Part shown: positions 1 to 16,931 of the stretch, one piece after another
Layout of the letters: every line of letters begins with the position of its first letter
How positions within the stretch are numbered: position 1 is the stretch's first letter
DNA from: an uncultured Myxococcales bacterium
GTDB taxonomy: Bacteria > Myxococcota > UBA4151
Direction: 5' to 3'
DNA length: 16,931 bases
NCBI GenBank assembly: GCA_964013405.1
Contig: CAXGWI010000071.1
Location: forward strand, 1-16,931
Program-made: the position numbers and the translations under genes
The notes under the pieces: model-generated
The model's database searches: none
What the model saw: only the letters and a program-made list of their open reading frames with translations
What the model was told of the DNA's origin: nothing

Positions 1-2598
1 CACCATCCAATAACCATCCACCGGGTTGTTATGCTGGGCAATCTCTGAGGCATCGAAAGATTGGTTACCAAGGACCCCCGGGGCCATCGCCGGCTTAAAC
101 GGGGTGAAGATGTCGAGCATCAGACGCCCCTCGCCCGAGAGGCGATAAAACTGTTCGGCTGCTGTGTTCGCCGCTCGCTCGGCATCCTCCATTTGATCTT
201 TAAAGTGGCTTTTGAGGCAGTCCTTGAGGGCGCTGATCACGCTTTGGGCGAAGGCGCTTTGGCCGCAAATGTAGGCTGAGCCTCCATCACCGCCGTCGGC
301 AAGGGGCAGCAAGGCTTGAAGGACCTGTTGCTGAAGGGCTGGCTCTTGTCGGAGGAGACCGTCCACTCGCCGTTGCGGACCTGGTTCGAAGGCCGTCGGG
401 CTCAACTTGGGCTGCCAGCGGGTGGCTTCCCGAGAAAATGCGACCTGGACCTGGACCCGATCATCCTGACTCCACTGGCTGAGCAAGGCTTCATAGTACA
501 ACTGCTTGGAACTGCGTGTCCCAAAGAGCAGGAGATTGTGTCCCTCAGCACCGGTCTCGAGTCGATTTTGGATGAAGCCGATGAACGGAGCGATGCCTGT
601 GCCCGCGGCGAACATGACGATCGGGCGGCTGGGATCCGCCGGCAAGTGGAAGCGTGATGGCCGATGGATTCGTATCGGGATTTCAGCTGCACCGTCCTGG
701 GTCCCCTGCAGTAGATAGGTGGATGCGGTGCCCGTGACCTCCCTATCCTCGCCATGGGGTCCCCGCTCCGCCCGATAGCGAAGGCCGCCGACGGTCAGAC
801 TCAATTCATCGACGGGCCCATCGTCCGTTGGGCTCTGACTCGAGGCGATCGAGTACAGACGATAACGATCGGGCGGCAACAAGCTCGAGAGGCTCTCCGA
901 CTCCCAAGGTGCGGCCCGCCAAAGGCGGCGGAGGTCGTAGTTGGACTGCCGATTGATCAGTTCACAGAGTCCGACAAAATCCCACTGATCCTCGGCCCGC
1001 GCTTCGAGCAGATCCCTCAGGGCTCGGGCGCCGGTGAGGCGAGCCATTCGGCGAAGGGTGGAACGCTCCATCGGTCGAAGACGAGCATACCGCAAGAAGG
1101 TGTCTAGGCGGACAAAAGCCCCCTCTTCCCGACTTGAGATCTCCTCGCCATGACGCAGCAGATGGGCTCGCCATTCCGCTGTAACCCCAAGCTCTTGCTG
1201 CCCCTCGGCCCGGAGAATCTTCATGGCCGCTTCCACGTCCCCAGGGCGGCTCTGGGGCAGAATCGCACAGCGATCGCCGGGCTGGTAGCGAAGCCCTTGT
1301 CCCCGAGTGTCCAAGGTGAGTCGTCGGACCGGTACTTCGGGATCTTTCACCACGGCCGCCCCTTGCCTGAGCGTGGCGGTACTGGGCCGGAGGGTCAGCC
1401 CCTCATAGCGTTCCCGTCGAGCCGCTTCGATGTGGTCGTCGACCCGATCCCAAGCCCGGGGGCCCATCGAGGCACTGAAGCCCCCATTGGTGGCTCTTCG
1501 ACCGGTCTTAAAGCCCAACTCGATGTAACCATAAAGTTTAAGACGGTGAATCCCCAGGAAGCCGCGCTCGCCGGCATAGGCATCTAAAGCCCCCTGATAC
1601 AGCCCCTCCAACTCCCGATCGTCCCGCTGCCGTATCCACCCACGCAGGTCGACGGCCCCAATGGAGCGATGCAAACGCTGAAAGTCCGAATGGAGCCAGG
1701 AGAGATTATGTTTGCTCTCTTGGCCCAGCGCTGAGCCGTATTCTTGTCGACGAAAGAGGGCATCGAGAATTTGAAACGTGGGTGTCTCCGTCCCGCTAAA
1801 GCCTGGCTCATCGGCCCGGGTCGGTGCGCCGAAGGGGGCCACAAGTTTCGCCCAGACGATGGGATCCGCGTAGTGTTTTGCCCAAGAGTTGGCTTCCAGC
1901 TTGAGGAAACTGCCGTAGGTCAGGCGGTCTAAGGCGCTCCGGACCTCGTCCAAATGCGCAGCGACGACATCTCGGTCGTCCGCGAGGACCCCTTCGGTCG
2001 CGCCAACCACTGCCGCGAGCAGCGGCCCCGACTGGGAGAGGATCTCGGTGACGGTCAACATGGAAAAGCGCTCGGCATCATTGCCCATCGTGGGGATCAG
2101 AATCTCCATATTCTCGAGGACTCTGGGACCCTCCGGATCCTTCAGCCGCCAGTTGTAGGCGACAAAGTCCGCTGAAGAGAGAAAGGGAGCCGGGCGTTTG
2201 AGCCGTGCGCTCACCGTCTTCCAGGGGGCCATGAGGCAGTTGGGGACGCTGGGGTATTGCTCGGGATGGGATCGAACCCAGGCATGGACAAGGTGACCTA
2301 GAATGGCCGCCGCTCGGCAAAGAGAGGGCGCCTCAAGCGAGGCTGCATCAGCGGAAAGCTCCGGTAAGTCTCGTACGGCGGCAAGGATCTGTCGGTCCCG
2401 CAGGAGCCGAGGCATGTCGGCGGCAAGCTCATCCCATAAAGCATGGGAGGATGGGAGTTCTCGCTGGGGCGGAGCGATCGGCACGAAGCCCTGGGCGACA
2501 GAGCAAAAGAGGTCGGTTCCATGCCCCTCCTGCAACTGGGTCTTCTCGGCTTCTGCAAGCACCAAGCCTGGGGAGGGGTCGTCCGCGCTTGGGATCAC
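1..2598 (-). CDS. IDO-like heme dioxygenase fused to FAD/NAD(P)H reductase (CPR/FNR-like) and cytochrome b5-like domain; 3' end outside window
   Basis: Hand translation shows no stop from GTG at 2598 to base 1. An in-frame TAG lies at 2599-2601 and GAGG about 8 nt upstream. IDO-like motifs: QGFVPIAPP, LPSSHALWDELAADMPRLL, PWKTVSARLKRPAPFLSSADFVAYNWRLKDPEGPRVLENMEIL, SGTETPTFQILDAL, GIHRLKLYGY (His 1546-1548), ATNGG. Reductase motifs: YQPGD (1287-1273), RLYSIAS (861-841), GTASTYL, GTGIAPF (603-583), LLFGTR, VAFSRE, YICG (273-262), MLDIF. Cyt b5-like start: FDASEIAQHNNPVDGYWMV (57-1). Confidence 0.9.
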   Translation of the reverse strand, partial: MIPSADDPSPGLVLAEAEKTQLQEGHGTDLFCSVAQGFVPIAPPQRELPSSHALWDELAADMPRLLRDRQILAAVRDLPELSADAASLEAPSLCRAAAILGHLVHAWVRSHPEQYPSVPNCLMAPWKTVSARLKRPAPFLSSADFVAYNWRLKDPEGPRVLENMEILIPTMGNDAERFSMLTVTEILSQSGPLLAAVVGATEGVLADDRDVVAAHLDEVRSALDRLTYGSFLKLEANSWAKHYADPIVWAKLVAPFGAPTRADEPGFSGTETPTFQILDALFRRQEYGSALGQESKHNLSWLHSDFQRLHRSIGAVDLRGWIRQRDDRELEGLYQGALDAYAGERGFLGIHRLKLYGYIELGFKTGRRATNGGFSASMGPRAWDRVDDHIEAARRERYEGLTLRPSTATLRQGAAVVKDPEVPVRRLTLDTRGQGLRYQPGDRCAILPQSRPGDVEAAMKILRAEGQQELGVTAEWRAHLLRHGEEISSREEGAFVRLDTFLRYARLRPMERSTLRRMARLTGARALRDLLEARAEDQWDFVGLCELINRQSNYDLRRLWRAAPWESESLSSLLPPDRYRLYSIASSQSPTDDGPVDELSLTVGGLRYRAERGPHGEDREVTGTASTYLLQGTQDGAAEIPIRIHRPSRFHLPADPSRPIVMFAAGTGIAPFIGFIQNRLETGAEGHNLLLFGTRSSKQLYYEALLSQWSQDDRVQVQVAFSREATRWQPKLSPTAFEPGPQRRVDGLLRQEPALQQQVLQALLPLADGGDGGSAYICGQSAFAQSVISALKDCLKSHFKDQMEDAERAANTAAEQFYRLSGEGRLMLDIFTPFKPAMAPGVLGNQSFDASEIAQHNNPVDGYWMV

Positions 2599-2689
2599 CT
2601 AAGAGGCCTCGCATTGAGGCTGAGACTGAACAAGGCGATTGCAGCAGGAGTTCTCAAAACCCCCGAAGAATGCCTTCGTTGCCTTCAAG

Positions 2690-4963
2690 CTAATCGACCT
2701 GCTGAAAGCAGTAGATCGGGCTGAGTCGGTCACAGCCCTGACCCGCACACCAACTGGTCCAGTTAGAGACCATGTCATAACGACCCCAATACCCAACCCC
2801 TTCTTCACTGGTCCAATTCTGGCAGGAGTTGCGCAAAGTGTAGCCGTTGCGTTCTACCCCACTCCAGACGGTGCGGAAGCCCCCGCCGGAACACATGGTC
2901 GTGCCAACGGCCTCTGGCCTTCGACCATACTCGTCTCTGTCGATGACGTTCGTGATCCCGTTGGTCAAGTGCCACCAGGTCTCCGCAACCATCTCACCGG
3001 TCGTAAGGACATAAGGGAAGGCCCGTCGATTCCAGGTGTTTGCAGGTGCTTGTCCAGCGACCCCGAGCCAGGCGGTGTAGCGACCAGGGAGACCCGCTGC
3101 CTGAGCCAGACGGTTACAGTGGGCGTCCCCACCTGCTTGTCCACCCAAGTTGCCCGTAAACATCTCACTGGAGAGGAAGACGTAATAAACCTCCTCTGTG
3201 CAACTCGCGCTGCAGCCGTCGCCATCGTCATTGTTGCCATCATCACACTCTTCATCTCGATCGTCGTCTAGATTGCCATCACCACAATAGTGGGTCGTTC
3301 CAGCGGCGACCTGGCAGCCCGGCGTACACACTTCACAGGCCCGCTCCCCGTAGGCACAATCGAGCCGATTGGCTTCACCCTCGTCACAGGCTTCGCCATC
3401 GGCATCATGGACCACCCCATCGCCACAGACCCGCGGGACGCCGGCCGCTTGGGCACAACTCAGATTACAGACTTGGCACGCGTCTTCACCATAGGGGCAA
3501 TCTAGGGTGTTGCCCTCGCCATTGTCACAGTCCTCCCCTTCTTGCTGCTGCACTTCACCATCCCCACAGTAATGGGTTTCTCCGGCTTCCTCGCCGCAGG
3601 CTTCATTGCAGACGGTACAAGCCCGTTCCCCGTAGGCGCAGACTAGGTTCACATTGCCCCCTGCATCGCAGTCTTCGCCGTCAAGCCCATCGATCACGCC
3701 GTCGCCACAGTAGTGGGCCTGACCTGCACGGCGCTGACAGTCGGGATGGCAAAGCTCACATGCTTCGAGACCATAGGCGCAGGTTTCCGTGTTCCCGTCG
3801 CCCTCGTCGCAGGCTTCGCCGTCGTCACCGTCGATCTGCCCATCCCCACAGAAGTGGACGGCACCGGCTTGCTGTTGGCATTCCGCATTGCAGACTTGGC
3901 AGGCCTGTTCGCCATAGGCACAGGTGAGGTTGACCCCGTCCCCTGCATCGCAGGCCTCTCCCGCCCCTGCGTCCGTCGACCCGTCGCCGCAGAAGCTCGT
4001 CAGCCCTTGGCCGCGTTGGCAGACCGGCGTACAGACCTCACAACTCTGCTCACCATAGACACAACGCTCCGTGTTCCCTTCGCCTTCATCACAGGCTTCG
4101 CCCGCAGCTTCGTTGGTGAGCCCATCACCACAGAGGGCCGGGCTGCAATCCGAGTCACAGGTTGCGGTCGCTTCACCATCATCACAGGCCTCGTAACCGT
4201 CCTCACCGGGCTCGAGGTCGACTCGGAGGATGCTGTCCCCACAGCGAGCGGCCTCGCAATTGGCTAGGCAGGCATCTTCATCCACCAAGCCCCCATCGTC
4301 GCAGGCTTCGCCGTTGTCGACGACGCCATCACCGCAAGCTGCTAACTGGCATGAGCTTCGGCAGGCATCCGCGACTAAGTCGGAGTTTGCTTCGCCGTCA
4401 TCACAGGCCTCGAAACCCTCGTCCCCCTCCGCCAGATCCGTTCGGAGGAAACCATCACCACAACCGGCCTCTTGGCAATTGGTCAGGCAGTTATCGGTCT
4501 CGCTTGCGTTACCGTCGTCGCAGGCCTCCGAACTGTCGACCACCCCATCGCCACAACCCCCTTGCTGGCAGTCCGTACGGCATTGCGCATCCGGAGCTTC
4601 GCTGTTCTCATCGCCTTCGTCACAGGCCTCGAAATCCGAATCCTCGCCTTGAAGATCGGTTCGCAGGAAACCATCACCACAGCGTGCAGCGACACAGGTC
4701 GCTAAACAGGCATCCGTATCCTCGGTGTTTCCATCGTCGCAATCTTCCACCCCCACATGCCGAATTCCATCGCCGCAGACAGCTTCCCGACAGGCCGCCG
4801 TACAGGCATCAGAATCGACCTCATTACCATCGTCACAGGCCTCTCCGGTGCCGACGATGCCATCGCCACAAACGACACGATCTTCTGGCTCCGGTGTCTC
4901 CAAAGCCAAACAAGCCGTGGTCAACGAAAACAGGGTAAGGAAAGCGACTTGGCGAGGCATCAT
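2690..4963 (-). CDS. Probable lipoprotein with Myxococcus Cys-rich (DUF4215-like) repeats and C-terminal DUF1554/endostatin-like domain
   Basis: Many CGDG..(G)EACDDGN...C repeats. C-terminal [39 protein letters not shown]...PIYCFQ. Start moved from 5047 to ATG 4963, which has GGAG 6 nt upstream and gives a signal peptide with a lipobox-like end ([18 protein letters not shown]). Confidence 0.88.
3287..4132 (-). repeat. Six tandem 47-aa (141-nt) six-cysteine repeats within the Cys-rich CDS
   Basis: Unit CGDG-x6-GE(A/D)CDxG-x6-CxYG-x3-CxxC-x3-C-x4-G-x4, counted six times in the translation. Confidence 0.9.
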
Positions 4964-5158
4964 AGGGAGCTCCAAACAGGCGAACTCTGCCCGAAAGGGA
5001 CCACCCTCGTAAACACCCCCCTCAGAAGGTGCAATTCCCAGGTCCATCCTACAGCGCCCATTGCGTCGTCTACGAAGCCATACGGTGGCGATGGCTTGTG
5101 TCCAGTGCAGCTGTTGCGCAGGATGCTGGGGCGCGATGATCGACCGGGGGTTCGGCTT

Positions 5159-6001
5159 GTGGACGAGGGTTTTTCCCCAGCAGTGCTGGCTTGGTGGGCG
5201 GTCATGTCCGGTATTGGGCTTTTCAATATCGGGCTTTGGATCGCTTTCGGCTTAAGACACAGGCGGCGAACGAGTCGGGACAGGCACTGGGCCGCCTACT
5301 GGCGTTGGCAATGGTGCCTTTCAGGGCTCTATGTGCTCGGCTGCGCCTCCCGTTGCTTTGTCTTGCGCAGCGACGTGAACCGTTATGCGCTCATCGACTC
5401 ATGGATCGCCAGCGTGGCGGTCGGGCGCAGCGTAGCGACGGTGGCTGAGCTGGCTTTCGTCGCCCAATGGACGGTACTCTTGCTGTTGTTCGCCCGGGTC
5501 AGTCGGGCGAATTTTGCCGCCCGCTGTGCTTGGCCGATCGTGCCGCTCATCGTCTTCGCTGAGTTCGCCTCATGGTACGGTGTCCTCACGACGAACTATC
5601 TAGGGCACGCCATCGAAGAGTCTTTGTGGGCCTTGAGTGCGGCGCTGATGGTGCTGGGACTCTGGCACTGTCGCGAGGGGGCCCCCAAGGCCTTTCAGAA
5701 GCCCATCAAGGCGGGCCTGTTTTGCGGCCTAAGCTACATACTTTACATGGTCATCATCGACATCCCGACCTATGTCGGTGCCTGGGCCCGCGACCAAGAG
5801 GCGAGCAAGGTCTATTTCACACTGAGCGAAGGCCTCGGGGATATTCAACGGGTCGTGGTGACCGGGCGTACAGAGGATTGGCAGTACCCCATGGTGTGGA
5901 TGACCCTGTATTTCAGCCTCGCAGTCTGGATCAGCTTGGCGATGGTTCGTTGGCCCGAAGAGGTCGATTTGCCAGCCATAGAGTCGCAGCCCGAAGACTA
6001 A
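5159..6001 (+). CDS. Multi-pass integral membrane protein of unknown function
   Basis: About 7 hydrophobic segments, with motifs [32 protein letters not shown] and [14 protein letters not shown]. The track start at 4757 overlaps the divergent gene. The real start is probably GTG 5159 or ATG 5123 (uncertain). Confidence 0.8.
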
Positions 6002-8351: not shown

Positions 8352-10436
8352 ATGTCGCTACGCTCTCGAGCTACACAGGCTTCGATGGATCCCTTGCTTC
8401 TCACGCGCGTAGCGGCCTGGTCACTGCCCCTCGCCATTGTCTCGATCGCCCCACCCGTTTTGGCGAAATCACCGATGCCAAGCATCGAGACGAGCCACTC
8501 AAAGCCTCCAACCCTTCGAGGCGCTGTGAAAGAGGTGGATGAAATAACCGTCGCCCGTCTCAGGGGAGAATTCCATCTTCTCGACCCCAACGGGCGAGCC
8601 GTTCTTGCCATGGAACCCAAAATCCAAGCGATCTATCACGACGGTGAAAAGCCCATCAGGCGTCAAGCCCAAGTTCGGGATTGGCGGCATGTAAAAGATG
8701 GGACTGCCTGGCAACTCATCGGCCAACACGACAGCCCTTATGCCCATTGGCAAGTCACCTGGAGTGGCGCTCGTCAAAGCCCTGCAGTCGCTCTCAAGGT
8801 GGAGGTCACCTATCGGGCCAATGTCGCTGTGATCCATGAGTCCGTCCGCTTTCAATTGCTTCAGCAAGGTCGTGTTTCCGGATCCATCTTCGACCGCGCC
8901 TATCGTTGGCGTGCGCTACGGGGCCTCCACCGCATCGATCAGTGGACTCCCCAGCGATTTCGCTGGGGGAAGGGAGCGCGCGGGTATCTGCTGGCGGCAG
9001 AAGCTCAGTCGATGGCCGTTCGGGCTCAAGGCCGTGGTTATGAACTCCAACTTGATGTGGATGATGCTCGCAACCACCCACTCTCGATTTTTCGTCACTG
9101 TTGGTCCGCCTACGCGAAGGTCCAAGAAGGCCTCCGTCGAGATAAGAGCGCCCAATGGCGGACCCCAGGAGAACGGGTACAAGTTGGCGCGGTGGTCAGG
9201 CCTTGGACCGGGCTCCAGTTGGCGAAGCGGCGCTATCCAAAGGGCTTTCGAGCCGCCCTTGTCTTCACCGATCATGCGGATCAGTCCAGTGCCGCCCGTC
9301 TGGCAGCCCTTATGTATGGGGAGGGCCGAGACAAGGCACCGCATGCACCGAAGCAGCCAAGCCGAGGCTTTGCGACCCATGGGCTTGGCATGTCCAAATC
9401 GGTCTACGCCCGGGGCGGTGCCTTCAAACAACTCGACGGTCCCGAATACCGTGCGTTGGTCCGCCGCCTCTTAAGAGAAACACAGGGCAGAATCGAGATT
9501 GGCCCCCACTCCACCAGTGGGCGGCGGGAATCTCGGCTCTCGGCTCTGAAAGACTTACGGGATTTCCAGCGGCTAGGCGCTCGTTTTTGGATCGACCATC
9601 AGCCCTCCACCAATTGCGAGGCGATCACCAATCAGGGGGCGGACGAGAGCACCAAATATCACATCACGGATGTCCTCGGACATTATGGTTACGATTACGT
9701 CTGGAGCGGCCTCGACCGCCGCCAGAGCAAGGGAAGCTTGAACCTATTCCAGCCGAAACGTTCACGGCAGCACCAACCCATTCTCTTTCAGCACAGCCGG
9801 GTCGATGGCAAACGTCGAGGTCTTTGGCTTTTTAGTTCCGTCTGGGCCGCCCACGATTTCTCGGCCTTCTTGCGGCGCTATGGCCCGAAGCGCTTAGACG
9901 CGCTTGCGGAAGAACATGGCATCCACATCGCTCACACCTACCTGGATACCTATTTGGCAGGAGGCGCCATGAAGAATTGGACCCTACTCGATCGGGTGCC
10001 CGGTGGTTTTCGTCTTAAGGACAAAGCGGAGCGACTCTTTCGGCGCTTCGCCGCCCGTCAGTCTCGTGGCGATCTTTGGGTGGCTGGTGTCGTCGCTGTC
10101 GGCGATCACTTGATTGGGATGGCCGACGTTCGCATCGCTTCAAAGCCAGATGGGAGCTTTCTCCTGCATCACAGCGGGGATCGAAAACTATCCGGCGCCA
10201 CCTTCAGCGTGACCGCTGAGGCCGGTCACCCCCATCTGAACGACCACCCCCTTCCCCAAGCACAGATTCGGACCAGTTCCCGAGCCAATCAACGATGGTT
10301 CTGGTTCGACCTGGAGGCCGGCCAAACGGTCAGACTTCGTTTTCCTGAACCGGGAGCGGCCCTTAGACCGGCGGCAGCCCAGGGTAGTCGGTTGTTGTGG
10401 ACCGAACCTCCCACCGGTTTCCTCAGAGCCCCCTAA
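8352..10436 (+). CDS. Secreted protein with polysaccharide deacetylase-like (NodB/CE4-type barrel) domain
   Basis: 694-aa ORF with signal-like WSLPLAIVSIAPPVLA. YPKGFRAALVFTDHAD, IEIGPHS, WIDH, LGHYGYDYVW, HTY and GDLWV occur in the order expected for the deacetylase barrel. Start may be ATG 8385. Confidence 0.65.
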   Translation: MSLRSRATQASMDPLLLTRVAAWSLPLAIVSIAPPVLAKSPMPSIETSHSKPPTLRGAVKEVDEITVARLRGEFHLLDPNGRAVLAMEPKIQAIYHDGEKPIRRQAQVRDWRHVKDGTAWQLIGQHDSPYAHWQVTWSGARQSPAVALKVEVTYRANVAVIHESVRFQLLQQGRVSGSIFDRAYRWRALRGLHRIDQWTPQRFRWGKGARGYLLAAEAQSMAVRAQGRGYELQLDVDDARNHPLSIFRHCWSAYAKVQEGLRRDKSAQWRTPGERVQVGAVVRPWTGLQLAKRRYPKGFRAALVFTDHADQSSAARLAALMYGEGRDKAPHAPKQPSRGFATHGLGMSKSVYARGGAFKQLDGPEYRALVRRLLRETQGRIEIGPHSTSGRRESRLSALKDLRDFQRLGARFWIDHQPSTNCEAITNQGADESTKYHITDVLGHYGYDYVWSGLDRRQSKGSLNLFQPKRSRQHQPILFQHSRVDGKRRGLWLFSSVWAAHDFSAFLRRYGPKRLDALAEEHGIHIAHTYLDTYLAGGAMKNWTLLDRVPGGFRLKDKAERLFRRFAARQSRGDLWVAGVVAVGDHLIGMADVRIASKPDGSFLLHHSGDRKLSGATFSVTAEAGHPHLNDHPLPQAQIRTSSRANQRWFWFDLEAGQTVRLRFPEPGAALRPAAAQGSRLLWTEPPTGFLRAP

Positions 10437-10822
10437 GGTGACATCAATAAAGGCTCGTCTTCACCCCCAGAGGTCGGGAGCTCCTTCGGCGGGTTGAGAT
10501 CGGGGATCCGGGCCCGCAGGCGATCACTGAGTTCATCGAGGGGGACCACCCGACCCGTCGCGACCAGCAGGCCCGTGGGCCGACCATGTTCCCGGATCAA
10601 GCGATGATCATCATTACAGATCGCAAGGCGTTGCGTGAGTCGTGCGAAGGCCAAAAGAAAGCCGCCCTCAACGCAGGCTTGAAAGACCGCATGAGAGCAG
10701 GATGGGCGAAAAAGGCACGAGCGAGTGCTCAGCACACCTTTGCGTTTCGAAAACCAATAGAGCCGTATCAAGAGGCAGATCGGATGGAACCAGGCTCGCA
10801 GCCGACGGAGGGCCGAGAACAT
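10433..10822 (-). CDS. YidD-like (membrane protein insertion efficiency factor / haemolytic domain) protein, divergent
   Basis: LIRLYW...SCLFRPSCSHAVFQA...GG...RLAIC matches the three-Cys YidD pattern CRFxPxCSxY...RxxRC. Confidence 0.7.
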   Translation of the reverse strand: MFSALRRLRAWFHPICLLIRLYWFSKRKGVLSTRSCLFRPSCSHAVFQACVEGGFLLAFARLTQRLAICNDDHRLIREHGRPTGLLVATGRVVPLDELSDRLRARIPDLNPPKELPTSGGEDEPLLMSP

Positions 10823-10829
10823 GCCGCCT

Positions 10830-11522
10830 TTACTCCATCATTTTGTCGACGCGCTTCAGCAGTTCCTTATGCTGATCCGGAATGGGGAGTTTGTAACAGC
10901 CCATGCCTTCGAAACAGCCCTCCTTGGGGCCTTCCGGCACCTTCCACATCTCGATCATAGGCACCGTCAGGCTCGGGTGCTTCCGTTTGATGTTATAAGT
11001 CGAGGTCTCAAGAATCGCCTTTTGGATCTCGTTGAGGTCATCGAACTCAGCCGCATTACGCACGGCCCGAACGATCTCATCTTTGATCCACTCATCGAGA
11101 CGAACCGTTTGCTCGCTCCCACCTCGGAGATATTTGACCATGAGATCATTCCGAGTGTCCTGGGCCGAGGACTGGATGTCGTAATGGGTCAGCGCATGCA
11201 GCGGGATGTTCGTCGCTGAGCCCGCCTCGGTCACAATATAGCGATAGTTGGTGAGAATATCGCCTACGCCGATGCTGACGGGAAACTCGCCTTTCAAGAC
11301 TGGAAAGTCCTGCAGGACCTTGACGGCAATTTTGTCCGCATCTGAGCGCGCACAGAGCGCGTAGTACTCTTCCGGGCCCATATTTCGGTACTGCTTATAG
11401 ACGGCATATGGGGCTTGGAGCCCGGCGTGATAGGCCGGCCAGAAATCTGCCGTCGTCGCGACAAACTCGTCGATATGCTCCTGAGAAAGTTCGGAAAGAT
11501 TGAATGTTGACTCGCTCGCCAC
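10830..11522 (-). CDS. Hypothetical protein, possibly with a bacterial PH-like domain
   Basis: 230-aa ORF with GTG start and AGGAGG 6 nt upstream. ILTNYRYIV...IPLHALTHYDI resembles a bPH pattern (weak). It ends 7 nt before the YidD-like gene. Confidence 0.75.
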   Translation of the reverse strand: MASESTFNLSELSQEHIDEFVATTADFWPAYHAGLQAPYAVYKQYRNMGPEEYYALCARSDADKIAVKVLQDFPVLKGEFPVSIGVGDILTNYRYIVTEAGSATNIPLHALTHYDIQSSAQDTRNDLMVKYLRGGSEQTVRLDEWIKDEIVRAVRNAAEFDDLNEIQKAILETSTYNIKRKHPSLTVPMIEMWKVPEGPKEGCFEGMGCYKLPIPDQHKELLKRVDKMME

Positions 11523-11588
11523 TGGCGGCCTCCTATAAGGTTGCTAAACGCCCTCAGGAACCGATCGAGAGGGCTCAAGTTCTGGGGC

Positions 11589-11622
11589 AACCTATTGGAT
11601 AGACGGCGCGTCCGTCAATCCA
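11589..11622 (-). promoter_or_regulatory. Candidate sigma70-type promoter overlapped by an inverted repeat
   Basis: Minus strand TTGACG (11618-11613), 18-nt spacer, TAGGTT (11594-11589). Dyad TGGAT-a-GACGG-cgcgt-CCGTC-a-ATCCA at 11596-11622. Confidence 0.4.
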
Positions 11623-11714
11623 GCCAAGATGATAAAAATGATAACGGCTACGGGGGGGCAATTCCTGTTCGTCAACGGGGCTCTTGAGCGCCGTAAGCAC
11701 CCTCTATTCGAAGC

Positions 11715-12266
11715 CTACTTCAAAGGTGCTAGATAGTGTCTCTCTAAAGGCCAAGTTGCCGAAGCCTCCCCCGCCGTAACGAGCAACAACCCCTCATGGA
11801 GTAGTAAAGACCATTGATTCCGTCGCCCAAGACCTTGTGCTACCGCTGCGAGCCCGTCGGCATCGAGGGTATAAACTTCGATGGTTTCGGCCTCGTAGAG
11901 ATTCGCTGCCCGGAGTTTTGCGAGCCAGGCTTCCGTCGCATTATAGCTGTACACGATGACCCGAGGCGCCCGCTTCGAAGCCCGGTGGAGTCGCTCGGGC
12001 GACGGCTGCCCCACGTCGAGCCAAATGGAGAGCGCCCCCGTAAGGTCCTGGGCGAAAAGGGCTGGATCATCACCATTGGATAGGCCGCCCTTCGAGAGTT
12101 GCAGCGCGTCTCGACAGTGGAGGCTATAAGCGATCACCCGGGTGAGCATGCGGATGTCGGTCTCCGAGGGGTGTTGAGCGACCCGCAGGTTGACCTGCTC
12201 GTAAACCCCACGGTCGACATCGCTTACATCGATTTCAAAGCTGAGCAGTTGGGATGGGCGGGCCAA
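11715..12266 (-). CDS. yaeQ: YaeQ family protein
   Basis: SDVDRGVY...VAQHPSETDIRMLTRVIAY...KGGLSNGDDPALFAQDLTG...WLDVGQPSPERLHRASK. TTG start with AAGGA upstream. Confidence 0.93.
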   Translation of the reverse strand: MARPSQLLSFEIDVSDVDRGVYEQVNLRVAQHPSETDIRMLTRVIAYSLHCRDALQLSKGGLSNGDDPALFAQDLTGALSIWLDVGQPSPERLHRASKRAPRVIVYSYNATEAWLAKLRAANLYEAETIEVYTLDADGLAAVAQGLGRRNQWSLLLHEGLLLVTAGEASATWPLERHYLAPLK

Positions 12267-12314: not shown

Positions 12315-12608
12315 CTACTCGCCCTCGTCCACAAAGGCGGCCTTGAGGCGCTTCTCAATGCTCGCTTTGAGTCGAATGGGATCGACACCCACCGCTTTTG
12401 CCATCATGCCCAACTTCACCGTCACGACGACTTCAGTGGCTTCGATAACGATCGAACCGCTGACCCCCATGCCTTTGAGGTTGGCTTGGGCCTCCTGCCA
12501 TTGGGCGGTGACACCGTACTTGCCCATCATCTCTTGAAATCCGCCCATGCGCTCCTGAGCCTCCGTCAACGAGAGACTGTGAGCTTGTCGAACGACCACG
12601 TCAGCCAT
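12315..12608 (-). CDS. Polyhydroxyalkanoic acid system family protein (PHA_gran_rgn-like)
   Basis: 97 aa: MADVVVRQAHSLSLTEAQER...YGVTAQW...GVSGSI...VTVKLGMM. GGAGG RBS. Confidence 0.85.
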   Translation of the reverse strand: MADVVVRQAHSLSLTEAQERMGGFQEMMGKYGVTAQWQEAQANLKGMGVSGSIVIEATEVVVTVKLGMMAKAVGVDPIRLKASIEKRLKAAFVDEGE

Positions 12609-13193: not shown

Positions 13194-13359
13194 TGCAAGG
13201 TGCTCCTGGTGCCAACAGACGTTGGTCTAACCCTTCAGATTCAACTTGGCAAAGACAGCCTATTGAAGCTTCAGAAAAAAAGTTGAGAGGGGGTCTAGGC
13301 AACCCGATGTCGTTGAGTGTAACTGGCCCCATCTGAACACCTTAATGGAGGATTATAAC

Positions 13360-13770
13360 GTGACAGAACAGGAAATGGCCGGTGCGGGTCTTCTCGCTGG
13401 ATTCGGTTTGATGATGCTCGCTATTTGGTTTGCGATCGCTTTGGTGCTCTTCGCATCGATCTGGAAGTTGTTTACCAAAGCCGGACAGCCCGGTTGGGCT
13501 GCGATCATCCCCTTCTACAATACCTATGTCATGGTGGTCCCCATCTGTGGCCTGCACATCATGTGGTTCATTTTCTTCTTTGTTCCCGTGCTCAACATGG
13601 TGGCTTCGATCTATCTTCCGTTCAAACTTGCGTCAGCCTATGGCAAGGGTGCCGGATTTGGCATTGGCCTGATTTTGCTTCCTTTCATCTTCTTGCCCTT
13701 GTTGGCCTTCGGGTCCTCGACGTGGGTTGGTGCAGGCGACGCTCAGGCAGCCCCGGCGCCCGCCGCCTAG
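13360..13770 (+). CDS. DUF5684-family membrane protein
   Basis: WKLFTKAGQPGWAAIIPFYN...LASAYGKGAGFGIGLILLPFIFLPLLAFG. GTG 13360 is preferred because GGAGGA lies 7 nt upstream; ATG 13345 is the alternative. Confidence 0.88.
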   Translation: MTEQEMAGAGLLAGFGLMMLAIWFAIALVLFASIWKLFTKAGQPGWAAIIPFYNTYVMVVPICGLHIMWFIFFFVPVLNMVASIYLPFKLASAYGKGAGFGIGLILLPFIFLPLLAFGSSTWVGAGDAQAAPAPAA

Positions 13771-13899: not shown

Positions 13900-16800
13900 C
13901 TAGGGCAACCAGCGATCTTCCAAGCCCACCACCCGGTTGGGCTCGGCACCGGGAGCTAGCGGTTCCAAGTTACGGCCCCAACAGGAGAGAGATCCTTCGC
14001 CGTGGAGGGCGCAGGTGGTCTGGGTGGCGCAAAAGAGCTTGCTGATTTCAGCGGGTGCGCCGGGCATCGGGCCCAGAACCCCAGGCTCGGCCTGAAGTCC
14101 CCTTTCGCCATAAGAGTTGCTGCCCCAACACCAGACTTCATTGCTTTGGGTGAGCACGCAATCGAGAGCTCCGTTGCCACAACCATCGATCACGTGGGTC
14201 GGCACCCGCAGGGGCTCAACACTGTTTTCAGCGATTGCATAACCAAAATTGATCACTCGACCATCGTTTCGCACAGCCTGGAACCGGTGCGGGCTCCCAC
14301 CCGTGAGACTGAACCGGGCGATCCCATCCAGGCCCGCAAGGGCGCTGGGTTGATCGACGCGCTGTGACCCTTCGCCTCGTTGCCAAAACAAGTTCGTACT
14401 GGTTCCCCAGCAAGAGATCTGCCCCTCGCCGTCCAAGGCGCAGGCAGCATAACCGCCCACCGCAATTTGCTGCACATCATCGAGGCCAGGGACCTGTTCG
14501 AAGTACTGAAAGTAGTCCACTGGAACGCCATTGCCGAGTTGGGCTTCAGCATTGGCGCCCGCACAGAAAACTTGGCGTTGTTCACCGCTGATCACGCAAA
14601 GGACGGGATTGGAGCCCCATCCGGTCGTCTGTGTCGTGTCAAAGTCATGTACGTAGGCCAAGGGGATGACCTGGGGTACCCGGGTCAGGCTCTCGCCCCC
14701 CAAGCCCATAAAATTGGCGTGGGTGCCCCAACAACTGAGCAGCCCTTCCCCATGGAGCCCACAGCCTGAATAATAAAGGAAGCGTAGTTTATGGACATCG
14801 TCCAAGGTCGGAACTGCGTGAATATGATCGGTGTATGGATCGAGAAAATCTGGATCGGCAAAGCGACCAAAGGTGCTATTCGACCCCCAGCAGTGTACCC
14901 TCCCCTCCCGATCAATGACGCAATTCGTCCCCGAATATGTGCTCCCTTGAAAGCTCCGAATGGGAGGGATGTTCGCCATCAAGGTCGGCTCAACGTGCAC
15001 TTTCGGCCGCCCTGCCCCTTCGAGGCCGGAGTTCCGACCGTCGCTGGAGTAGCATCGCACCACGTTGGCATCGTCCAGCTCGCATCGAAGGTGACCATGG
15101 GTGGCGCTGCGGACGGCGGAGGTGACGTGCTCGACATCAAGCACGTCGCCGTAGGGGAGCCTTAACCAGGCGCCGGTCTCGACCTGTCGTAAATAAGTCA
15201 CCTCCTGCATGGGCCAAAAGCTCGACTCGTTGCGCAGTTGACCCACCGCACCGTAGGCAGCGAGATGAACTGGCGAGAGGCAATGGCTGCTTTCCTCGCA
15301 ACCTAAATCCTCTGAAGTCACCAGGCGGTCTCCGTCCCGTGCGCGGGCGCCCCAGAGGTCCCCTGGGGAATCACCCCACCACGCCCGTTGGCCTGGTCGC
15401 GCCTCTGGGGTCCGATCACCTTCTCCCCAGCACCAGAGCTCGTCCTCGCCATTGATGGCGCAGGTGTTGTCACCAAAGGCATAGAGCGAACGCATGCCTG
15501 TCATGCCGGGGACAAGGACCGGCTCCTCCGAGTTCTCCGTGGTCCCCTGACCGAGTTGTCCATGGAGATTGTCGCCACTGCACGCAACTTCCCCTGCTTC
15601 CCCCATCAGGACGCAGCGATGGTAGTCACCCACTGCAACAGCTGTGGCTTGGGTAAAGCCTCGGGACTCCTGAGCAAGACGGTTGCTATCAATACCCCAA
15701 CAAATGAGATCCCCCCCACTGCGGGCGGCACAACAGCCATTGATGCCGCAGTCGAGGTCGATGAGGTCGGTGAGTGGTTGTCGGTCGGCGCCCAGCACAC
15801 GGGCTGGCTGGGACGAGCGAAAGAACGCCGGATCTAAGCCCAGACCAAGGGCCCCATTGGGCACGTTATTCCCCCAACATTGAACGCCGCCATCTCGGAG
15901 CAAGGCACAGAGTCGCTCCGATCCCGAGTTCACCAGTTTGGTGGCGTTGTCGATCTCGGGCAGCCGAGTCGCGCGGATGATGTCCGAGCGGTCTGCCCGT
16001 GGCTCCGCCGGAATGGGAAAGCCGAGGGCGCCATTCCGGTTCGAGCCCCAGCAGTAAACCCAGCCCCGCTCTAAGAGGGCACAGGTCCCGTATCGGTGAC
16101 TCTCCAGTTGGATGATACCAGCGCCACATCCGGCCGGACAATCATCACCATCAAGCCGGTTGCCGTCATCGCACGATTCGTTGCGATTGATCGCACCATC
16201 ACCACACATGGTTCCTTCACAGGCATTGTTGCAGGCGTTCAGATCATCGACGTCACCATCATCACAGCTTTCAAAGCCGGGTTCCCCCACCGTCAAATCG
16301 CGCCGAAGAATGCCATCGCCACATCGAGCCTCCACGCAGTTGTTTCGGCAGCCGTCATCTTCGACATCATTGCCATCGTCACATTCCTCCCGCCGGGGAT
16401 CCTCGGGAAAGCTGCCCTCAAAAATGACGCCATCGCCACAGTCCGATCGTTCGCAACTGTTTGAGCAGCCATCCCCATCGTCGATGAGGTTACCATCATC
16501 GCAGGCTTCGAAACCCTCTTCGCCACGAACTCGGTCCAGGCGCATCACCCCATCACCACAGCGAGCGATCTGGCAATTGTTTAAGCAATCATCCGTTTGG
16601 ACGTCATTGCCGTCATCGCAGGCTTCCTCCAGCAGCCAGTGGAGCCCGTCACCACACACATTCAGTTGGCAGGATGCAGTGCAGCTGTTGTCATCTCTTC
16701 GGTCGCCATCATCGCAAGCTTCATAGCCCGGCTCCCCCTCGCTGCGGTCCTCCCGTCGCATGCCGTCGCCACAATAGCTGAGCTCGCAGTTCGTGGTGCA

Positions 16801-16931
16801 GGCATCCAAATTGTCATTGTTGCCATCGTCGCAGGCCTCGACCCCAACCCGCACGATGCCGTCCCCGCAGCGAGCCGGGAGGCAGGCGTTCGTGCAGGCA
16901 TCGAAGGCTTCATCGTTGCCATCGTCGCAGC
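13900..16931 (-). CDS. Large Cys-rich (DUF4215-like) repeat protein with C-terminal RCC1-like beta-propeller repeats; 5' end outside window
   Basis: The frame stays open past the track start to the window edge (CDDGNDEAFDACTNACLPARCGDGIVRVG...). CGDG/EACDDG repeats run to about 16125, followed by repeated TCAL..G.V.CWGSN..G.LG units. Confidence 0.92.
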   Translation of the reverse strand, partial: CDDGNDEAFDACTNACLPARCGDGIVRVGVEACDDGNNDNLDACTTNCELSYCGDGMRREDRSEGEPGYEACDDGDRRDDNSCTASCQLNVCGDGLHWLLEEACDDGNDVQTDDCLNNCQIARCGDGVMRLDRVRGEEGFEACDDGNLIDDGDGCSNSCERSDCGDGVIFEGSFPEDPRREECDDGNDVEDDGCRNNCVEARCGDGILRRDLTVGEPGFESCDDGDVDDLNACNNACEGTMCGDGAINRNESCDDGNRLDGDDCPAGCGAGIIQLESHRYGTCALLERGWVYCWGSNRNGALGFPIPAEPRADRSDIIRATRLPEIDNATKLVNSGSERLCALLRDGGVQCWGNNVPNGALGLGLDPAFFRSSQPARVLGADRQPLTDLIDLDCGINGCCAARSGGDLICWGIDSNRLAQESRGFTQATAVAVGDYHRCVLMGEAGEVACSGDNLHGQLGQGTTENSEEPVLVPGMTGMRSLYAFGDNTCAINGEDELWCWGEGDRTPEARPGQRAWWGDSPGDLWGARARDGDRLVTSEDLGCEESSHCLSPVHLAAYGAVGQLRNESSFWPMQEVTYLRQVETGAWLRLPYGDVLDVEHVTSAVRSATHGHLRCELDDANVVRCYSSDGRNSGLEGAGRPKVHVEPTLMANIPPIRSFQGSTYSGTNCVIDREGRVHCWGSNSTFGRFADPDFLDPYTDHIHAVPTLDDVHKLRFLYYSGCGLHGEGLLSCWGTHANFMGLGGESLTRVPQVIPLAYVHDFDTTQTTGWGSNPVLCVISGEQRQVFCAGANAEAQLGNGVPVDYFQYFEQVPGLDDVQQIAVGGYAACALDGEGQISCWGTSTNLFWQRGEGSQRVDQPSALAGLDGIARFSLTGGSPHRFQAVRNDGRVINFGYAIAENSVEPLRVPTHVIDGCGNGALDCVLTQSNEVWCWGSNSYGERGLQAEPGVLGPMPGAPAEISKLFCATQTTCALHGEGSLSCWGRNLEPLAPGAEPNRVVGLEDRWLP

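Follow-up and report, generated by a model that had tools for sequence, protein, structure and literature searches.

The stretch of DNA analysed here (the window) is 16,931 nucleotides long, comes from an uncultured Myxococcales bacterium and takes up all of contig C71, one of the 244 in a 3.9-Mb assembly. At its left-hand end the minus strand encodes the greater part of a fusion protein composed of four parts, in the order IDO-fold heme domain, CPR-type module for flavin adenine dinucleotide (FAD) and NADPH, bis-His cytochrome b5 and a helical domain of ~220 aa (Table 1). The gene begins with a GTG that coincides with the starts of its homologues. Since contig C71 ends inside the gene, it is cut off at window base 1, and this truncation is the likely reason why it is missing from the track of open reading frames (ORFs). 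No match to a sigma-70 promoter or a terminator was found between window positions 2500 and 2800.

The missing part lies at the start of another contig of the same genome, C57, where base 2 opens a 293-codon frame (L051:2-883) that is 52% identical to residues 863-1123 of P0002, the closest homologue. Hidden Markov models (HMMs) built from homologues recognize two domains in this region, the b5 with E 4e-30 and the C-terminal domain with E 8e-51, and the frame product matches Cyt-b5 PF00173 (E 2.9e-14). Joined through the four bases that the contig ends have in common, the complete protein comprises 1158 aa, exactly the length of P0002. A tblastn search of the genome with the window protein (P0001) matched C71 alone, because only ~20 residues of the b5 lie within the window.

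Two observations could point to a chimeric assembly or to gene decay: the gene is split between two contigs of a 244-contig assembly, and among 40 relatives of this genome the fusion was not found in any (10 of which gave reductase-only matches, and the five closest of which, from the same genus or family, are 59-93% complete). Runs labelled marine metagenome, however, provided independent contigs across both critical points. In a 1048-nt contig from run X2 (~93% alike), bases 1-423 match window positions 423-1 and bases 420-1048 match C57 positions 1-629, no gaps being listed, and a second X2 contig spans the junction between IDO domain and reductase (window 1309-2019) free of gaps. Thirty of the 40 differences listed, out of 119, fall at third codon positions, and 135 homologues have the same layout. 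Misassembly as the source of the fusion is excluded, and the bridging contigs and homologues leave a chimeric or decaying gene with practically no credence. No relative of P0001 was found among 40 pattern matches in a scan of metagenomes, nor in a plasmid search. None of the 19 runs listed was an RNA run containing the sequence, a result without bearing on expression.

Domains of the fusion protein

In the window frame, Pfam identifies NAD_binding_1 (E 7.7e-12) in addition to the IDO family, with FAD_binding_1 (E 2.6e-6) falling below its own cut-off; the b5 goes unmatched there, its ~20 residues being too short. A phmmer search of the PDB with the window protein returned sulfite reductase flavoprotein (SiR-FP; E 1e-22) and IDO1 (E 4e-13). 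There is no Pfam match to P450, and the N-terminal domain has the IDO fold: its model (predicted local distance difference test score, pLDDT, 92.5; predicted TM score, pTM, 0.92) superposes on IDO2 over 351 residues with a root-mean-square deviation (rmsd) of 1.9 and a VIA Z score of 41.6, followed by IDO1 (38.7), PrnB (25.4), TDO (12.4) and MarE (10.3). Foldseek gives query TM scores of 0.76-0.81 to IDO1 and IDO2. The full-length model of P0002, which is 57% identical, reaches a pLDDT of 94.7 and a pTM of 0.94, and the four domains are therefore expected to form one defined unit.

The reductase of the P0002 model has a diflavin-type fold, with VIA Z scores of 36.6 to SiR-FP60, 35.5 to the FAD domain of BM3, 31.5 to nNOS and 18.3 to Ncb5or. 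Residues R580-Y582-S583, C778, D829 and F831 are present in this protein and well conserved in 90 aligned rows (R580 in 86, S583 in 87, C778 in 87, D/E829 in 83 and F/Y831 in 82); we take them to be the Ser-Cys-Asp set and the shielding aromatic of diflavin reductases. A Ser-Arg pair aligned with that of SiR-FP, presumably the residues that set the preference for NADPH, points to NADPH as the donor. A domain for flavin mononucleotide (FMN) is absent: none of the scanned family members matches PF00258, and the linkers in the 135 full-length forms, at most 71 and 96 aa long, leave no room for one. The b5 has both heme ligands intact, His881 of the HPGG motif and His905 (full-protein numbering), and this pair is conserved in 175/175 and 174/175 of the proteins that contain both IDO domain and b5. 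The helical domain gave no Pfam match, no usable Atlas match, no likeness to the IDO profile and no VIA row among the matches listed, the comparison having been made only inside the full-length P0002 model.

A preliminary description, made from the window alone, had read the locus as one uninterrupted minus-strand frame joining an IDO-like domain, an FAD/NAD(P)H reductase and a b5 at the contig end, whose HPGG motif and stop codon extension ought to reveal. This reading holds in each respect, with no sign of the misassembly that would have refuted it; the three-part fusion it proposed, however, has a fourth, helical domain and is coupled to a CBS gene.

Heme pocket and predicted docking of cytochrome b5

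The likely proximal ligand of the IDO-type heme is His351, which by its position probably corresponds to His346 of IDO1, the printed HMM alignment to IDO2 ending before this residue. Across 181 family members Asp279, Ser268-Gly269, Trp249 (177/181), Lys354, Arg367 (176/181) and Thr370 (175/181) are near-invariant. The position of IDO1 Arg231 is occupied by Ala in 161 of the 181 and by Arg or Lys in none, and the GTGG of IDO1 and TDO is replaced by T-x-G-G (x being I, N, V or T; the Thr is Thr370), with a register relative to IDO1 that is unsettled. A section of one report calls R231 critical for tryptophan binding and says that GTGG is conserved without exception in both families, IDO1 and TDO (PMC5700043). 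This protein further has Ser142, Ser179 and Val183 where IDO1 has Tyr126, Phe163 and Ser167, which suggests a wider substrate pocket; Ser at the Phe163 equivalent is common to subclade P0001-P0004 and found in 8/181 overall.

We modelled the IDO domain of P0002 (residues 1-398) in complex with its b5-helical part (840-1145) and two hemes. The docking score was 0.87, whereas the best of three controls scored 0.00; at least 87% of contacts were shared between runs, and the partner pLDDT was at least 85. Of 157 solved complexes 116 attain the mark used, and of 215 mismatches 2 do so, a calibration that applies only roughly here. The result supports binding of the b5-helical part to the IDO domain but does not show it. 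In the model, b5 residues 878-884 and 895-901, which adjoin the His ligands, contact IDO residues 242-249 and 350-363, just past the proximal His348, and the edge of the b5 heme packs on the helix bearing that His. The helical domain is predicted to hold the b5 in place, Lys361 pairing with Glu959/Asn962 (Lys364, Glu962 and Asn965 in this protein), and these clamp residues are highly conserved (Lys or Arg at 361 in 126/126, Glu959 in 118/126, Asn962 in 124/126).

Family distribution and gene neighbourhood

A profile search over 1.84 billion representatives (best 150 matches) and a genome scan (42 loci from 58 candidates) were carried out, and 207 retrieved proteins, a few of them duplicates or fragments, were sorted by block HMMs of our own. 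The IDO-reductase-b5-helical layout is found in 135, in keeping with the earlier suggestion that uncharacterised homologues may already exist in databases. The remainder are IDO-b5-helical (22), IDO-reductase-b5 (18), IDO-reductase (17), reductase-b5-helical (7), reductase only (4), IDO only (3) and IDO-b5 (1). Carriers belong to at least six bacterial phyla, including Myxococcota, Bdellovibrionota (among them Oligoflexus tunisiensis), Poribacteria, Chloroflexota, Actinomycetota and Pseudomonadota, and also include the alga Rhodelphis marinus; this patchy distribution suggests transfer or loss. Database labels for family members read 'sulfite reductase flavoprotein' or 'hypothetical'. In the literature searched (titles and the openings of abstracts, with subscription journals mostly outside) we found no description of an IDO-reductase-b5 architecture, in line with the preliminary description. 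A PF01231 passage in bioRxiv 10.1101/2025.01.08.631966 (on the Ukko defence system) and passages of PMC1821046 concern other proteins.

On a tree of IDO domains, loss of the reductase requires 10 changes (22 of 162 rows, P0101 excluded; a FastTree reconstruction with many weak forks and no shuffled control), and no reductase was found near the six reductase-less loci checked. By these sequence comparisons b5 and the helical domain are more constant partners of the IDO domain than the reductase is. P0167-P0174 and P0101 (~780-910 aa) have a shortened, degenerate reductase between IDO domain and b5, apparently without the connecting domain, and are possible intermediates of reductase loss. One reductase-less copy (L041:~10000-12100) has an IDO domain broken by frame changes, through either sequencing error or pseudogenization.

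Additional parts fused to family members include FHA, GGACT, EF-hands, NAD_binding_2, DSBA and a STAS-like tail (a name taken from an Atlas lead, 0.90). EF-hands occur in P0112, P0137 and P0093; two of these proteins are from R. marinus, and in one the EF-hand sits within the reductase. Such forms hint at calcium control of the kind seen in NOX5. Myxococcota and Oligoflexus forms (L001, L002, L004, L005, L012, L013 and L028) have a GGACT/AIG2 domain at the N-terminus, behind which there is often another, unassigned region of ~150 aa.

The stop codon of the fusion gene overlaps the start of a CBS gene on C57. Orthologues of the CBS protein (E < 1e-15) are encoded in this genome and 9/42 other carriers (10/43), and in 0/12 non-carrier relatives, which are kin rather than independent samples. 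Directly upstream of the 42 loci lies a PAS-kinase-receiver gene in 10, a CBS gene in 8, another gene or none in 18 and a contig end in 6. None of the neighbour clusters listed that recur in at least four loci is a metabolic enzyme. Elsewhere in this genome, contig C5 encodes TDO and kynureninase ~8 kb apart; among carrier genomes, many of them incomplete assemblies, TDO is present in 23/43 and kynureninase is matched in 13/43, of which 6 exceed the cut-off.

Three large DUF4215 proteins with Cys-rich repeats are encoded nearby. RCC1 repeats are present in two of them and a weak match to DUF1554 in one; two of the three flank the fusion-CBS pair. Within the window, three products had no Pfam match at E 0.01, one of which looks membrane-bound by eye. 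The C-x-F-x-P-S-C-S motif of a further 129-aa ORF is reminiscent of YidD-type membrane insertion factors, and the remaining neighbours are ordinary.

Table 1. Features of the fusion locus, its continuation and other genes discussed (window positions unless a contig or locus is named)
Feature	Position	Strand	Remarks
IDO-reductase-b5-helical fusion gene, first 866 codons	1..2598	-	Single stop-free frame; GTG start at 2598; open at 3' end
Fusion gene, last 292 codons and stop	C57, L051:5-883	+	Same genome
GAGG, likely ribosome-binding site	2607..2610	-	8 nt before GTG
GGTG overlap	1..4	-	4 bases common to window end and C57 start, in frame
IDO-type heme domain, small and large subdomains	1408..2535	-	aa ~22-397; PF01231 E 2.5e-24
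FAD/NADPH module, diflavin-reductase type	103..1377	-	aa ~408-832; connecting domain, no FMN domain
Cytochrome b5, first ~20 residues	1..60	-	Remainder and helical C-terminal domain on C57
His351, likely proximal heme ligand	1546..1548	-	181/181; only invariant His of domain
Ala254, at IDO1 Arg231 position	1837..1839	-	HMM alignment to IDO2
CBS gene	C57, L051:880-1338	+	152 aa; PF00571 E 2e-21; start in ATGA overlap with fusion stop
TDO	C5:72823-73635		
Kynureninase	C5:64025-65239		
DUF4215 protein	2690-5047	-	
DUF4215 protein	13900-16929	-	
DUF4215 protein	L051:1367-4207	-	
ORF	5072-6001	+	309 aa; no Pfam match; looks membrane-bound
ORF	8352-10436	+	694 aa; no Pfam match
ORF	10433-10822	-	129 aa; C-x-F-x-P-S-C-S
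ORF	10830-11522	-	230 aa; no Pfam match
YaeQ	11715-12266	-	
PHA_gran_rgn	12315-12608	-	
DUF5684	13345-13770	+	

Proposed function and its alternatives

With IDO1 and IDO2 the protein shares the two-subdomain fold (rmsd 1.9-2.2 over ~350 aligned residues), the His ligand, equivalents of Asp274 and the DE loop, and b5 as a proposed reductant, which in those enzymes is a separate partner alongside CPR. It differs from them in its low identity (~21%), in the changes at Arg231 and GTGG, in coexisting with TDO and in carrying reductase, b5 and helical clamp within the same chain. P450BM3 (CYP102A1), NOS and flavohemoglobin likewise combine a catalytic heme domain with an NADPH/FAD module in one chain, but the heme domain here is a His-ligated IDO fold, as opposed to a Cys-thiolate P450, a NOS oxygenase or a globin, and the likely shuttle is a b5 situated C-terminal to the reductase. 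PrnB, MarE, SfmD and TDO are members of the same superfamily with a His-ligated heme, yet they are far more distant than IDO, and their solved chains of 255-349 residues contain neither reductase nor b5; no prnABCD cluster accompanies the fusion, which is flanked by DUF4215 and CBS genes. NCB5OR and nitrate reductase likewise carry an FAD reductase together with b5 on a single chain, but their reductase is of the b5R type and an IDO domain is lacking. The fusion is not a member of IDO1/IDO2 proper, given Arg231 and GTGG, nor of the diflavin reductases, given the absence of an FMN domain, nor of PrnB.

In our judgement there is an even chance that the protein is an NADPH-driven monooxygenase acting on an indole-type or aromatic molecule, supplied with electrons via FAD and b5 and regulated by its CBS partner. 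Electrons would pass from NADPH to FAD, to the b5 heme and then to the IDO-type catalytic heme, with b5 as a one-electron shuttle in place of the FMN domain of CPR-type reductases. The catalytic heme would activate O2 and insert one oxygen atom into a small aromatic other than ordinary tryptophan, instead of supplying the kynurenine pathway by tryptophan cleavage, the helical domain clamping b5 on the proximal-His helix via Lys364 with Glu962/Asn965. This activity would be switched by the CBS protein in the present genome and, in other members of the family, by FHA, EF-hand, STAS-like or PAS-kinase partners, and the product or its removal would therefore probably serve signalling. Monooxygenation would explain the built-in chain, because each turnover uses electrons; part of PMC12921851 states that IDO monooxygenation needs re-reduction at each turnover, which dioxygenation does not, and describes PrnB and MarE as monooxygenases. 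PrnB supplied with b5 or CPR in vitro gave no product, according to an excerpt of PMC11791213.

The preliminary description had envisaged an IDO-like dioxygenase with its own electron chain, analogous to P450BM3. A self-contained chain is consistent with the model, in which the edge of the b5 heme lies on the IDO domain, but the analogy is altered in that b5 likely substitutes for FMN. Likewise the IDO fold stands, whereas plain tryptophan dioxygenation is doubtful because Arg231 is absent throughout the family and separate genes for TDO and kynureninase are present in the genome. We also weighed, as an unlikely alternative, a self-priming indoleamine dioxygenase that converts tryptophan or an indoleamine to formylkynurenine and whose chain only rescues autoxidised heme. 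Its nearest folds, IDO1 and IDO2, and the retained DE-loop Ser-Gly, Asp279 and T-x-G-G loop would suit such an enzyme, and serotonin and tryptamine have no carboxylate and thus no need of Arg231. IDO1 is described as accepting serotonin, melatonin and tryptamine in a passage of PMC9786828, and as supported in vitro by CPR with or without b5 in one of PMC13142367. The missing Arg231 nevertheless speaks against this alternative, as do the three replaced pocket residues of this subclade and the TDO-kynureninase pair, and more than half of the carriers have TDO although bacterial TDO and IDO are said, in part of PMC4191572, to occur exclusively of each other.

It is also unlikely, in our estimate, that this is a heme enzyme of gas or redox signalling that has no organic substrate and is switched by CBS, EF-hand or FHA modules, be it an NADPH-driven nitric oxide dioxygenase, a nitrite reductase, an O2 sensor or a regulated source of superoxide or H2O2 (compare flavohemoglobin, NOS and NOX). 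The mostly regulatory character of add-ons and neighbours (FHA, EF-hands, STAS-like tail, PAS hybrid kinase, CBS) and the occurrence of the CBS orthologue in 10/43 carriers but 0/12 non-carrier relatives favour it, and excerpts report nitrite reductase and peroxidase activities of IDO1 (PMC9786828) and IDO-like myoglobins that lost tryptophan turnover (PMC4191572). The conserved substrate-site and loop positions (W249, S268-G269, T370, R367), however, suit an organic substrate, and the GGACT and NAD_binding_2 add-ons are metabolic rather than regulatory.

Several points weigh against the monooxygenase that we prefer. It is derived from sequence, models and genomic context, with activity and substrate being predictions. 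The 22 reductase-less forms, with no reductase found near the six such loci checked, mean that the built-in chain is not essential. The regulators vary by clade, and in 18 of 42 loci neither of the two partners is the immediate upstream neighbour. As to the docking, both parts belong to the same chain and share an alignment, which makes a pass easier, P0002 was used in place of this protein, and conservation at the helical-domain interface exceeds that of the remainder only marginally (p 0.08); the FAD-to-b5 route is a proposed step. In the pocket, the equivalents of Tyr126 and Phe163 are kept in 124/181 and 164/181 of the family, and Arg367/Thr370 of the JK-loop equivalent could take over from Arg231 and bind tryptophan after all.

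IDO1 is a drug target in cancer immunology whose physiological reductant is still open, and whether CPR/b5 acts on it in vivo is called 'still unclear' in a section of the same report (PMC13142367). With b5 and reductase in one chain, electron transfer from b5 to an IDO heme becomes measurable, and a structure solvable, without mixing partners. The preliminary description had seen the fusion as evidence for an IDO-b5 link; for human IDO1 that evidence is only indirect, because the docking in the model depends on the helical domain, a predicted clamp specific to the fusion family which human IDO1 lacks. The protein would also be of use in biocatalysis, as a self-sufficient oxygenase with a His-ligated heme that requires neither ascorbate nor methylene blue.

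Database labels thus conceal a family found in an alga as well as in bacteria of at least six phyla. By analogy with BM3, NOS and flavohemoglobin, its members likely function like self-sufficient heme oxygenases assembled from IDO parts. More tentatively, they may constitute a class of heme enzymes not described before, switchable, driven by NADPH and producing signals, whose structure would give the first view of how b5 docks on an IDO-type heme. Such enzymes, an IDO-fold parallel to NOS and NOX with b5 for the FMN shuttle, would be gated by regulatory partners and make an oxidised indole, or a gas or reactive oxygen messenger, in bacteria and some eukaryotes.

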